A DNA stretch of 35,524 nucleotides from Candidatus Methanoxibalbensis ujae (GCA_026134085.1 JAOQIN010000016.1:1-35524); one strand, 5' to 3'; numbered from the stretch's first letter, positions 10,401 through 24,221 are shown. Numbers and translations: made by a program. The notes: a model not told the origin generated them from the sequence alone.

Positions 10401-10530
10401 CACAATCCTCCCTCACATCACGGCATTAAGCAGCACACATCCAGCACTTAGCAGCTTTGTGCAGCGCAGCTCTATGCAGCTCTATGCAGCTCTACACCAC
10501 AACAGACATAAATCAAACCGCTCCACGAAG

Positions 10531-10604
10531 CGGGCCGGGAGGGATTTGAACCCCCGACTGGCAGGTTAAGAGCCTGCTGCTCTACCGTTCTGAGCTACCG
10601 GCCC
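10531..10604 (-). tRNA. tRNA-Lys(CTT), no intron, CCA not encoded
   Basis: Reverse complement GGGCCGGTAGCTCAGAACGGTAGAGCAGCAGGCTCTTAACCTGCCAGTCGGGGGTTCAAATCCCTCCCGGCCCG folds as a cloverleaf; anticodon arm GCAGG-CTCTTAA-CCTGC. Confidence 0.97.
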
Positions 10605-14417: not shown

Positions 14418-16052
14418 TTAGCTCATGACCGGTTTGAAAAGTTTTTCCGGCTTTTCAAGCGGCTGTCCGCTTTTCAGTGGTATTGTTATCTCGTTCATGC
14501 TCACCTCATGTATATCAGATTCCATACCGAGCTGCTTCCAGAGTTCTTCCATTTTTGAGGGCATCACGGGCTCAAGCAGCACACAGACCGCTTTCAATAT
14601 TTGAAGAGTGTTCTTCACGATTTCACCGCATCTTTTTCTGTCTTTTTCATCGCTTTTTATGAGGTGCCACGGTTCTTCACGCTGAAAATAGCTGTTTCCA
14701 AAATCTGCGAGCTTCATTATGGAATCAGTCATTCTCTTGAACTCGTATTCAAAGAGCGCATTCACAGCCTCATCTCTCGTTTTGATTATATATGAGATCA
14801 CCTCATCCTCTATTTCGCCATCGGGGACTTCTGCCCCGAAATGTTTATGAGCGAACGAGAGAACACGAAATGCCAGATTTCCGAGGATTGCGAGCAGTTC
14901 GTTGTTCACTCTTGTTCTGAATGCCTCCCAGGAGAAGTCAAGCTCTTTCGTGTGGCTTGAATGTGCGATGAGGAAATATCTGAGTGTATCTGGATGAAAC
15001 CGTTTTATAAAATCCGCAACCCAGATCACATTTCCCCTGCTTTTTGAAAGAGGTTTACCGTTTATTGTCATCATTCCCGATGCAACAACAGCGCTTGGCA
15101 GTGAATACTCCGCCCCCTTCAACATTGCAGGCCAGAAAATGCAGTGATGATATATTATGTCGGTGCCTATGAAATGTATGATTGTTGCTCTGTTCTCCAT
15201 CCATATCTCCCGCCATCTCCGCTCCCAGTTCTCGCTGTCTTTCAGCTTGAGCGCTTCTTCTGTGAACGATATGTATCCAATTGGCGCGTCAACCCACACA
15301 TACACAACGAGATCATCACGATTCGGAAACCTCACACCCCACTTCAAATCACGGGTTATGCACCAGTCCTTAAGCTCACGGCGAACCCATTCAATCGCGT
15401 AGTTTCGTGCGTTCGCAGTGCCTCCGAGATTTTTGAGGAATGACAGAAGGAAATCCGCGAATGCTGACAGCCTGAAGTAGTAGTGTGTTCTCTCTCTGAA
15501 TTTCGCAGGACTTCCGCACACCTTGCACACGGGCTCCCTGATCTCGCCGGGCTCGAGATGACGGCCGCATCCCTGATCGCACTCATCGCCTCTCGCACGC
15601 TCTCCGCAGTACGGGCACACTCCCTCCACATATCTGTCAGGGAGAAATCTTCCGCAGCGCTCGCAGAATGCAAGCATCACTTTCCTCTCATACACATAAC
15701 CCCGCTCCATCAGCTTCTCAACAATCTCACGAGTCCTGCGATGATTGCTCTCATCGTCAGTGCTGCCGTAATAATCAAAGCAGACACGGAGATCGCTGAA
15801 AACACGCCTGAAATGCTCATGATAACGCCTCACAATCTCCTCAGGTGAAACTCCCTCAGATTCAGCGCTCAACACAATAGGCGTTCCATGCGTATCGGAG
15901 CCGCACACAAAAAGCACATCGTATCCCATCTTCCGCAGCATCCTCACAAATACATCCGCAGGCACATATGTGCGAAGATGACCAATATGGCACTCACCGT
16001 TCACATATGGCAATGCCGCCGTCACAATCACTGGCCTGTCCCTCGTGATCAT
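14418..16052 (-). CDS. metG: Methionine--tRNA ligase (no C-terminal tRNA-binding domain)
   Basis: ALPYVNGECHIGH, GSDTHGTPI, zinc knuckle, YVWVDAPIGY, KPLSKS; likely start ATG 16052 (ORF open from 16124). Confidence 0.96.
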   Translation of the reverse strand: MITRDRPVIVTAALPYVNGECHIGHLRTYVPADVFVRMLRKMGYDVLFVCGSDTHGTPIVLSAESEGVSPEEIVRRYHEHFRRVFSDLRVCFDYYGSTDDESNHRRTREIVEKLMERGYVYERKVMLAFCERCGRFLPDRYVEGVCPYCGERARGDECDQGCGRHLEPGEIREPVCKVCGSPAKFRERTHYYFRLSAFADFLLSFLKNLGGTANARNYAIEWVRRELKDWCITRDLKWGVRFPNRDDLVVYVWVDAPIGYISFTEEALKLKDSENWERRWREIWMENRATIIHFIGTDIIYHHCIFWPAMLKGAEYSLPSAVVASGMMTINGKPLSKSRGNVIWVADFIKRFHPDTLRYFLIAHSSHTKELDFSWEAFRTRVNNELLAILGNLAFRVLSFAHKHFGAEVPDGEIEDEVISYIIKTRDEAVNALFEYEFKRMTDSIMKLADFGNSYFQREEPWHLIKSDEKDRKRCGEIVKNTLQILKAVCVLLEPVMPSKMEELWKQLGMESDIHEVSMNEITIPLKSGQPLEKPEKLFKPVMS

Positions 16053-21672: not shown

Positions 21673-22938
21673 CTATCTGAATGATGATGCGAGGAGTGCT
21701 CCTCCGACAGCGCCTATGAACTGAGGATACTTCGGAATGATCACATCAAATCCGAGGATATCGCGCATGGCTCTTGGAACGCCATCAATGAGCGATGTTC
21801 CGCCAACCTCAATTGCAGGTTGCCTGACATCAATGTCCTGCATCAGCTGCTCCTTGACCTGCTCCACAACGGAATAACAGGCAGCTGCTGCAACATCCTC
21901 CCTGCGAGCGCCTGCTGAAAGTGCAGATACAAGATCCTGAATTCCGAAAACAACACAGTAACTGTCCATTTTTATCTTTGATGGGTCACCTTCAAGTGCG
22001 AGTTTGCCGAGTTGAACAACATCAACGCCCAATCTTCGCGCAGTAAGCTCCAAAAATCTGCCAGATGCTCCCGCGCATATGCCTCCCATTGTGAAATTAT
22101 CGGGAATTCCGTCTTTTGCGGTGATTATTTTGTTATCCATTCCTCCTATATCAATTATCATTGCCTCCCCTTTTGTTATTCCCGCGAGGTACATTGCAGC
22201 CTTTGAGTTTACTGTCAGCTCCTCCTGAATGAGTTCTGCATTGAAGTGTTTTCCGATGATGTATCTGCCGTATCCTGTGACGCCGAGTGCCTCTATTTCA
22301 TCCCTGTTCACATTTGCGATTTCAAGTGCTTTTGCAAACACCTTCTCAGCGGTGGGTATGACCTCTCTTGTGTGGGTCCAGTGAGATGCGATGACCTCGT
22401 TCTCATGCATTATGACAGCTTTTGTCGTCGTTGAGCCTGAATCTATGCCCGCTGTGAGACCTTCCTGCGTCTGGCGCTCGAGTATCCATCGCCGCCTCAC
22501 TATTGTGACAAGCGCCTCCATCCTTGTGAGAAGCTCTCCAGCCTTTGTTCTCTCAGAAAATGGATACATGACAACCGGAAGGTCTGTTTTCTCCTGAATA
22601 AGACGCCTTATCCCCGTCCTCATTGCGGCGCCTTCAGGGCACCGGTGGCATGTTGCGATGAAAACTGCATCTGCATCGCAGAGGTTCTCAATGATCGCGT
22701 AGCCGCGTGCAAGAGCCACATTCAGACCTATGCTTTCCCTGAAATCATAGCCGAATTCCCTCGCCTTCGCATACATGTAATCAATGTCAATTTCAGGAAT
22801 GACTATTTCCGCTCCAACTTTTTCAGCTGCCTGCTCTATCTCACGCTGCACATTCCCATATATCGTTCCGCAGGAAACCTGCGCTATTTTAACAGTATCC
22901 TCAGCAGATCCCTCTCTCATCCTCATCAATTGAATCAC
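21673..22938 (-). CDS. Methanogenesis marker protein 15 (BadF/BcrAD-type activase ATPase)
   Basis: [64 protein letters not shown]; start may be 22926 or 22920. Confidence 0.92.
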
Positions 22939-22979
22939 ATCCTTTAATATGATGGAATATGATGGATCAGGATGGCGAA

Positions 22980-23052
22980 TGCCGGGGGCGGGGTTCGAAC
23001 CCGCGACCTTCAGATTATGAGTCTGACGCCCCTCCGGCTAGGCCACCCCGGC
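22980..23052 (-). tRNA. tRNA-Met(CAT), probably elongator; no intron, CCA not encoded
   Basis: Reverse complement GCCGGGGTGGCCTAGCCGGAGGGGCGTCAGACTCATAATCTGAAGGTCGCGGGTTCGAACCCCGCCCCCGGCA; perfect acceptor, anticodon and T stems; G1-C72 and no three G-C anticodon pairs, so not initiator; Ile2 not fully excluded. Confidence 0.93.
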
Positions 23053-24001
23053 AGTTGCGCTGTGTCATGATTTCATTTCGCAGCTCTCCGAGATATGCGA
23101 TGCGTTCCGCCACAGCCTCGTGCTGATGTAGGCTCTCCTCATTTATTTGAGTTATCTTTATGAGTGCGTTGTCAGGCAGTTCCTTCAACATCTCAACGAC
23201 ATGAAGCGCCATCTCCCTGACGCAGTCCTCCACGAACTTGGGGTTTTGATGCGCCTCTATTGTGATGAAAGCCTCATCAGGCCTCTTAAGCAGCTCAAAG
23301 GTGCTCGCACTCATGGATTCCTCTATTATCCGTATGATCTTCGCCAGAGGCACGCTTGAATCTCCATCAGTTTCTATCAATATACGCCCTCTTCCACGCT
23401 GATTATGTGTTGCTATCGGCACGACACTCAGTATCTCCTCAATGTCACGCAGGTTCCAGCCGCGCTTCCTCAGCACTCCTTTTACCTCCTCCCTGACCAA
23501 TTCCTGCGCACACGGGCATGTCGTCACGCCTGTCACCTCAGCGCCCACGGTCTTCTTGATCCTGATGTCATCACCTCTCTTTGAGGCCACAGCAGATGCA
23601 AATATCTGAACTGGCTCATGAAACTCAATCCCCGTGACAGGCGTCCTTCGCTTCCACATGTATTCACTGCGCATATATACCTCCGCAACTTCCGCATATC
23701 CATGTCGCTGGAGCAGGTGCTTCGCAATCTCAACACACAAATCCTCCACACTGTATACGGGCATTTTCACAAATGTTTCAAGAACATCATACATCACCTC
23801 AAAATTTCGCGACAAATTCGCTCCTTTTATGTCAGGTGGGAGGTTCACAAAAATATCAAATGTGGACACAAGAACAATAGGGCGCTTACTTCCCGTTCCT
23901 ATCTCAACCAGTTTCTTCACATTCTCCACTCCCACTCTCGTCAAACTTATCTTCACATGCGGATTATATGCTTGCACATCCGGTAATTGCTTTATCTCCA
24001 T
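23015..24001 (-). CDS. mptA: GTP cyclohydrolase IV (MptA; methanopterin biosynthesis)
   Basis: [57 protein letters not shown]. Confidence 0.95.
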
Positions 24002-24221
24002 ATCGTATGGTTCACTCCGCTCATTTTAACACTTTCGTTTTTCCTCCGTGTCAGAACACCTCCCATCAGGACACAGGGTGAGCTGGAGTTCAAACACAGA
24101 CAGATATAAATAAATGGCGGAAACAAAGCCTCTCCTCACTGCCTCCATACTCAACCTCCTCACATCCTCACTCCCACTTCCGCCTCTTCCTGATGCATGA
24201 GAACACACATAACATCATGCC

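Follow-up and report, generated by a model that had tools for sequence, protein, structure and literature searches.

A tRNA-Met gene sits on the 3' end of mptA throughout an archaeal family and provides the mptA stop codon in about half of its genomes

The window investigated in this study, a stretch of 35,524 nucleotides, belongs to Candidatus Methanoxibalbensis ujae, whose genome (G000) is a draft metagenome-assembled genome of 86 contigs, 1.99 Mb and 89% completeness. On the minus strand, an open reading frame of 328 aa running from the ATG at 24001 to 23015 is the full-length mptA gene, coding for the GTP cyclohydrolase MptA (GTP cyclohydrolase IV, methanopterin synthesis): its product matches TIGR00294 with 403.4 bits against a cut-off of 220, residues 7-311 aligning with model positions 1-301 of 302, and PF02649 with 257 bits. 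The first in-frame stop codon, both in the sequence and in the ORF list, is the TAA at 23017..23015, and it lies within a gene for an elongator tRNA-Met(CAU) of 73 nt on the same strand (22980..23052), which is recognized by Rfam RF00005 with 67.9 bits (cut-off 29) and is placed by ARAGORN at 22979..23053, minus strand, with the anticodon CAT. The claim of the sequence-only reading which drew attention to this locus, that mptA has no stop before the tRNA and overlaps it by 38 nt on the same strand, is exact according to the sequence, the ORF list and Rfam; the overlap occupies 23015..23052 on the minus strand, corresponding to tRNA positions 1-38. If the tRNA is numbered from 23052, its anticodon C34-A35-U36 falls on 23019..23017, and the mptA stop consists of U36-A37-A38, namely the last anticodon base and two further loop bases. 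The 3' end of mptA reads CGC AAC TGC CGG GGT GGC CTA GCC GGA GGG GCG TCA GAC TCA TAA. Residues 312-328 of MptA form a 17-residue tail past the end of the TIGR00294 model at residue 311, in which a 16-nt link from the homology end to the tRNA (23053..23068, minus strand) codes for MTQRN-C, while the last 12 residues and the stop codon are encoded by tRNA-Met sequence. The first in-frame stops within this tRNA are TAG at positions 13-15 in frame A, TAA at 36-38 in frame B and TGA at 41-43 in frame C, and mptA enters it in frame B.

Downstream of the tRNA, after a spacer of 41 nt which is devoid of a T-run, the methanogenesis marker 15 gene is found on the minus strand (21673..22938; TIGR03286, 630.9 bits), at practically the distance of about 40 nt that had been noted before. 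Its annotated GTG start at 22938 probably lies too far upstream; the match to TIGR03286 opens at residue 16 of the ORF, and AAAGGATGTGATT (window positions 22929-22950, minus strand), located just 5' of TTG/ATG start candidates, appears Shine-Dalgarno-like by eye. The same spacer harbors a 10-nt tandem repeat (CCATCATATT on the minus strand, 22946-22955), one copy of which is absent in the contigs of the sequencing runs X5 and X10. McrA is present in G000, Mer was not found in this 89%-complete genome, and ANME-1 are not known to carry mer; the metagenomes carrying G000 sequence are hydrothermal and sediment ones. On these grounds the organism appears to be ANME-1-like.

Three tRNAs with a CAU anticodon were observed in G000, situated on contig C1, on contig C23 and beside mptA. 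Initiator tRNAs are marked by A1:U72 and by three G:C pairs closing the anticodon stem. The tRNA on C23, with A1..U72, a GGG/CCC anticodon stem and an intron, is probably the initiator tRNA-Met, and the one on C1, which resembles tRNA-Ile(GAU), is probably tRNA-Ile2. The mptA-linked tRNA lacks the initiator marks, having G1:C72 and the anticodon stem UCAGA/UCUGA, and is by eye unlike tRNA-Ile(GAU); an Ile2 identity hinges on a modification of C34, which is invisible in sequence. Judged from these features, it is most likely an elongator tRNA-Met, and on the point which had been suggested for checking, the 89%-complete genome yielded no second one, the other two looking like tRNA-Ile2 and the initiator. 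A DNA search of 66 family genomes disclosed one full-length copy of the elongator tRNA-Met in each, always adjoining mptA, except that G075 has two of them, each next to its own mptA. Among 24 sequence variants of this tRNA, the anticodon and T stems were seen to vary in a compensatory manner. With regard to its loops, most family members display the T-loop UCCGAAC, in which C replaces the near-universal U55 (L008:1409-1482, minus strand, checked against the Rfam alignment), and the usual UUCGAAC is seen in G000 and a few genera. The tRNA-Met of G001 (L013, ~965-1055) contains a 17-nt intron after the anticodon, giving 91 nt in total, and was missed by the ARAGORN run without the intron option.

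The junction was examined in assembled reads. Logan contigs from runs X1, X2 and X5, which originate from three studies, cover 23006 to 24067 or 24100 with no indel and show zero differences from G000 across 23006-23107; X1 may be the source sample of G000. This is contig mapping only, in which no single contig spans 22980-23052, since the contigs break inside the tRNA, and the contigs of run X10 leave 23053-23136 uncovered. The breaks occur because other organisms in the samples share the tRNA, making the assembly graphs branch. Another organism with a near-identical tRNA-Met and a different upstream sequence was seen in the same metagenomes (loose ends at 23052), this upstream sequence nearly matching the one before the tRNA of G009 (genus g10, L069). 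At the protein level, the 90% cluster of MptA, whose members were drawn from NCBI, ENA and Logan assemblies, comprises six distinct members, all six of 328 aa with an identical tail and with a few internal residue differences. The indel for which the junction was to be checked was thus not encountered in the X1, X2 and X5 contigs, the six variants keep the tail, and the overlap belongs to the population itself and is no assembly error.

The distribution of the arrangement was investigated in 66 genomes of the family, covering 13 genera, among which an mptA match was obtained in 57; the analysable mptA 3' ends also number 57, in 56 genomes, G071 being left out as it holds an N-terminal fragment only. 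At all 57 loci, tRNA-Met lies downstream of mptA on the same strand, the tRNA of G076 being cut by the contig edge, which answers the proposed comparison with related genomes and exceeds chance. The position of the mptA stop is variable. It falls inside the tRNA at 30 loci, that is, in about half of the family genomes: at the D-loop TAG 13-15 in 26, at a second D-loop TAG 21-23 in three, and at TAA 36-38 in one, G000 itself. At 21 loci, mptA has a stop 0-28 nt before the tRNA, and at six, from genera g10 and g13, the stop precedes the tRNA by at least 55 nt, as in G009, where it lies 55 nt upstream. The conserved triplets of the tRNA act as stops according to frame, with TAG 13-15 ending frame A, the second TAG 21-23 ending frame B, and frame C always relying on a stop of its own. 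Among the 51 loci with an adjacent tRNA, frame A is used with 26 stops inside the tRNA and seven own stops, frame B with four and six, and frame C with none and eight, there being no frame-C stop within most family tRNA-Mets. The link from the end of MptA homology to the tRNA measures 3-49 nt at these 51 loci and differs by indels, which is why all three frames occur; being so short and indel-prone, it often leaves mptA without a stop of its own, so that the frame enters the tRNA. Stops inside and just before the tRNA were both detected within the single genera g3, g5, g6 and g8. Consequently, adjacency is conserved in the family and the overlap is not.

The unusual depth of the G000 stop can be traced to the tRNA. 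G000 and its nearest genus (G009, genus g10, whose mptA is 66-67% identical to that of G000) have a 73-nt tRNA with the D-loop AGCYGGAGG instead of AGTTGGTTAGG, and this change in the g1/g10 lineage removes the frame-B TAG, making the anticodon-loop UAA 36-38 the next in-frame stop. Neither marker 15 nor the upstream Lhr helicase gene flanks mptA at any of the 29 relatives' loci tested, and since the flanking genes are not conserved, mptA and tRNA-Met move as a unit. The proposal that tRNA excision would generate the 5' end of the marker 15 mRNA is, for this reason, not supported as a general role, and many relatives moreover have T-runs right after tRNA-Met. Outside the family, no tRNA-Met was found after mptA at ten loci from other families (L021-L030), and it is likewise absent at L012, from the sister family. 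In two relatives (G009:C7 21246-22287 and G007:C111 10074-11096) the mptA match is split (about residues 3-141 and 139-325), pointing to an insertion, a frameshift or a fault of assembly.

A second pair of this kind was recognized when all 48 ARAGORN calls of G000, the one genome scanned whole, were searched for long same-strand open frames entering them. The only other real gene found is rpoL, for RNA polymerase subunit L (PF13656), which runs into tRNA-Gly(CCC) on the minus strand of contig C5 at ~15505-15843 (L073). It ends ...RYRAAMV-TAG, where AAMV and the stop correspond to tRNA-Gly(CCC) positions 1-15 and the TAG lies in the D-loop. This D-loop TAG closes rpoL (...AAIV or AAVV, then TAG) at 62 of the 64 loci from the family; at the remaining two, a separate rpoL stop lies 24-30 nt upstream. 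At both loci seen from the sister family, which belongs to the same order, tRNA-Gly begins one base past the rpoL stop, and at ten rpoL loci from other families no tRNA-Gly was found within the ~350 nt fetched. Open frames entering the G000 tRNAs Glu-CTC, Asn, Trp, Pro-TGG, Thr-TGT and Arg-TCG were rejected by eye as low-complexity junk. The tRNA-Gly(CCC) of many relatives (L078-L101 and others) carries introns of ~30-125 nt, some of which display a hairpin-like motif (...CTTTTTAAGAAAAAG.TTGATCAAAAAG...) resembling the sequence just after the tRNA of intron-less relatives, and this motif may be a small mobile or processing element.

Most tRNAs of G000 exhibit an obvious A/T box ~25-35 nt upstream. 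For scoring, a 14-wide promoter motif (consensus ~ATTTAAAWGAGAGA) was trained on 44 tRNA upstream regions of G000, tRNA-Met and tRNA-Gly(CCC) being held out, which lowers both their scores somewhat; a first 8-wide motif had converged on a purine-rich half-site and was replaced. By this model, 27 of the 46 tRNA upstream regions exceed the 95th percentile of random genomic windows. The score of tRNA-Met is 2.0, the third lowest of the 46 and reached by 42% of random windows, against 12.0 for tRNA-Lys (10530..10604), in line with the earlier remark that tRNA-Met, unlike tRNA-Lys, has no TATA box 25-30 nt upstream. The other lowest scores belong to tRNA-Gly(CCC), with 1.6, and tRNA-His, with -0.5, and 42-67% of random windows equal the scores of these three tRNAs; tRNA-His is expected to lack a promoter of its own because it stands 8 nt behind tRNA-Ser in a Ser-His tandem. 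Since tRNA-Met and tRNA-Gly(CCC), the two overlapped tRNAs, both lack the promoter motif, co-transcription with their upstream genes is likely. A candidate promoter of mptA itself, read from the sequence, is the TATA-like GTTAAAATGA at 24021..24030 (minus strand), 20-29 nt upstream of the ATG, with a motif score of just 5.5, and a second A/T box lies further upstream at 24103..24115 on the same strand. A sigma-70 and hairpin-terminator scan yielded nothing, these models not being relevant to archaea, and the fold of the 173 nt around the tRNA was no better than that of shuffled sequences (z = -0.54), so that no competing leader structure is proposed.

With reference to these observations, we propose that tRNA-Met has no promoter of its own and would be made on the mptA transcript, from which RNase P and a 3' nuclease would free it. 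To contain its stop codon, the mptA message of G000 must reach at least tRNA position 38. G000 encodes an RNase P RNA (211 bits), and a co-transcript cut at the 5' end of the tRNA would therefore lose the mptA stop codon: cleavage at 23052 would leave mptA RNA without a stop, as the earlier suggestion that excision yields a non-stop mptA message had predicted, and MptA would be made from the uncut transcript only. The simplest route would be one where ribosomes trail the polymerase and finish translation within the 5' half of the tRNA while this is still unfolded; the tRNA would fold and be released after translation stops. The stop triplets would be fixed by tRNA structure, as U13-A14-G15, N-A21-G22 and U36-A37-A38, and the overlap, rather than being a selected switch, would be a by-product that is tolerated as the spacer vanishes, the tRNA offering fail-safe stops. 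This joint reading, comprising a promoterless tRNA, co-transcription with mptA, release by RNase P, protein from uncut RNA and an overlap arising as by-product, is one in which we place moderate confidence.

Features of the coding sequence would fit a different course, in which tRNA-Met is transcribed independently from a promoter hidden in the 3' part of mptA, so that the overlap would be plain dual coding with little competition. The best motif match inside mptA, AAATAAATGAGGAG at 23135..23148 (minus strand), scores 10.3 and lies 83-96 nt upstream of the tRNA; it is a candidate internal promoter which stays within chance expectation. In Thermococcus kodakarensis, 644 internal start sites are reported, ~30% of them near the 3' end of an ORF (PMC4247193). 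In addition, five to six of the 30 overlapping relatives have the coding sequence GAGTTAAAAGAAGG ~28 nt upstream of the tRNA, with motif scores of 7-11, and several relatives show TTAAAAG ~27 nt upstream, so that an internal tRNA promoter may exist in some genera; the G000 motif transfers poorly to other genera, where at far loci it picks positions -44 to -53 and not the visible TATA. Nevertheless, clear motifs of G000 mostly start 23-50 nt from the mature 5' end and not 96, and four distinct matches of at least 8.26 occur in 1.26 kb where roughly two are estimated by chance. The match at 23135..23148 codes for a conserved QINEE, and GC-rich relatives lose its A/T run at synonymous sites. Among relatives in general, an A/T-rich coding stretch GAGTTAAAAGAA is met anywhere between 6 and 38 nt from the tRNA, drifting in position, and none of eight g11 loci nor the g4 loci contains an A/T-rich 8-mer at -42..-18. 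Even with such a promoter, the tRNA would remain part of any full-length mptA mRNA and be open to cleavage there. Taken together, we consider independent transcription unlikely, although it deserves a hearing.

The sequence-only reading had gone further and suggested tRNA punctuation or a regulatory switch. As a switch, the overlap would have been selected because it lets each transcript give either MptA or mature tRNA-Met but not both, which would tune methanopterin synthesis against tRNA supply. We know of no functional link between MptA and tRNA-Met. The frequent changes between stops inside and just before the tRNA (30 and 21 of the 57 loci), which alternate within genera, the occurrence of three stop positions and of all three frames, and a tail peptide in which no residue is conserved except where the tRNA imposes it argue against such selection, as does genus g13, where the genes have been split, the tRNA lying 120-260 nt from mptA and having gained its own clear TATA box, GCTTTAATTATAC, ~20-32 nt upstream. 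The geometry does permit a switch, a like idea was put forward for selB-selC (PMC8124441), and the near-fixed rpoL/tRNA-Gly(CCC) overlap is compatible with some room for selection; on balance, the switch is unsupported and we regard it as very improbable. Lastly, an artefact, in which assembly introduced an indel, the tRNA is a pseudo-tRNA or mptA is dead and truly ends elsewhere, is hardly credible and already largely refuted. In its favor stand the draft state of the genome (86 contigs from a metagenome assembly) and the Logan contigs, which break within the tRNA with none spanning the whole stretch. Against it, the X1, X2 and X5 contigs are unchanged over 23006-23107, six public protein variants agree in length and tail, mptA is full-length against TIGR00294, and the tRNA, with 67.9 bits and stems that vary in a compensatory manner within the family, is the sole elongator tRNA-Met found.

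The arrangement is of a kind known from the bacterial catalogue of CDS/tRNA overlaps and from selB-selC, and mptA/tRNA-Met is a new archaeal member of it. Hudson, Lau and Williams (2014) surveyed 2031 bacterial and 137 archaeal genomes with 115,660 t(m)RNA genes and listed 250 same-orientation overlaps with the CDS upstream, regarded as non-stop mRNA candidates and attributed to few evolutionary events each, which makes same-strand overlaps with a stop in the tRNA rare (PMC4131195). Their examples include 44 FtsW/RodA-type genes with tRNA-Ile(CAT) in Helicobacter and smpB-ssrA in Carsonella (PMC4131195). As in that catalogue, a CDS of a curated family (there Pfam-positive) precedes a valid tRNA on the same strand and has its stop within that tRNA, tRNA maturation would be expected to take this stop away, and the case is confined to one tRNA and one related genome group (PMC4131195). 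The host of mptA, by contrast, is an archaeon, the available text of the catalogue naming no archaeal case (PMC4131195), and what is further unlike the cases described there is that the sole elongator tRNA-Met is involved, that the frame reaches the anticodon loop, and that two pairs are kept across a family of 13 genera.

The selB ORF overlaps or contains the tRNA-Sec gene (selC) in Alphaproteobacteria, Dyella/Luteibacter and Nitrospirae (Mukai 2021, PMC8124441). This case resembles ours in being a same-strand overlap that is conserved and not essential, in that close relatives regained a stop just before the tRNA, in the hypothesis of a non-stop mRNA and 'alternative expression' put forward there, and in being purely bioinformatic (PMC8124441). 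It differs in being bacterial and in that SelB binds the overlapped tRNA-Sec, which provides a rationale for coupling (PMC8124441), whereas MptA and RpoL, by their established functions, do not handle the tRNAs they overlap. Among archaea, 23 C/D box sRNA genes of Pyrobaculum supply the stop of the upstream gene through their 5' end, and conserved overlap is more than 40-fold rarer there for tRNA genes than for sRNA genes (Lui et al. 2018, PMC6009581). Here too an archaeal same-strand non-coding RNA gives the preceding CDS its stop, and co-transcription was there inferred from promoter analysis, with the difference that the RNA is a C/D box guide and not a tRNA (PMC6009581).

Release of tRNAs from protein-gene transcripts, as proposed for mptA, has further parallels. 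The E. coli secG-leuU unit is a tRNA-mRNA co-transcript. In Thermococcus kodakarensis, a tRNA-Lys lies inside the 159-nt 5' UTR of TK0306 (PMC4247193). In both of these the tRNA is cut from a protein-gene transcript, and in neither, unlike mptA, does the CDS overlap the tRNA, so that processing spares the stop codon. In animal mitochondria, tRNAs that lie in coding regions or border them are cut out of polycistronic RNA, which sets the mRNA ends; this punctuation is genome-wide there, stop codons are completed by polyadenylation, and in G000, unlike mitochondria, two tRNAs of about 46 are affected. We know of no stop-codon repair of the mitochondrial type in archaea. An overlap of cox1 with tRNA-Lys is described in Armadillidium (as cited in PMC8124441). 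The literature searched, with subscription journals mostly outside it, held no account of the mptA/tRNA-Met arrangement in archaea or ANME-type genomes, and what discussion there is of overlaps of this type concerns bacteria and organelles almost exclusively. The interpretation first offered for this locus therefore amounts to a known hypothesis applied to a new case and is partly supported, its co-transcription being plausible and its switch unsupported.

Added interest comes from the anticodon-loop depth of the overlap, the involvement of the sole elongator tRNA-Met, the conservation throughout the family and the near-fixed second pair. For annotation, our data imply that tRNA-encoded tails are not to be read as protein features and that the overlap should not be 'corrected'. 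The mptA and rpoL loci constitute natural tests of archaeal translation termination against RNase P processing on one RNA, and they allow testing whether some archaeal tRNAs arise solely from mRNA 3' ends. In its widest form, which we put forward tentatively and think somewhat doubtful as it stands, at least two housekeeping tRNAs of this family, the sole elongator tRNA-Met and tRNA-Gly(CCC), would have lost their own promoters and would be made only as 3' modules of the mptA and rpoL mRNAs, which would be translated first, with termination inside the unfolded tRNA, and matured into a tRNA only afterwards. If the promoterless-tRNA reading is true, these loci would parallel mitochondrial tRNA punctuation on an archaeal chromosome, and tRNA supply would be tied to the transcription of protein genes in a domain of life in which tmRNA-SmpB has not been identified (PMC4131195).
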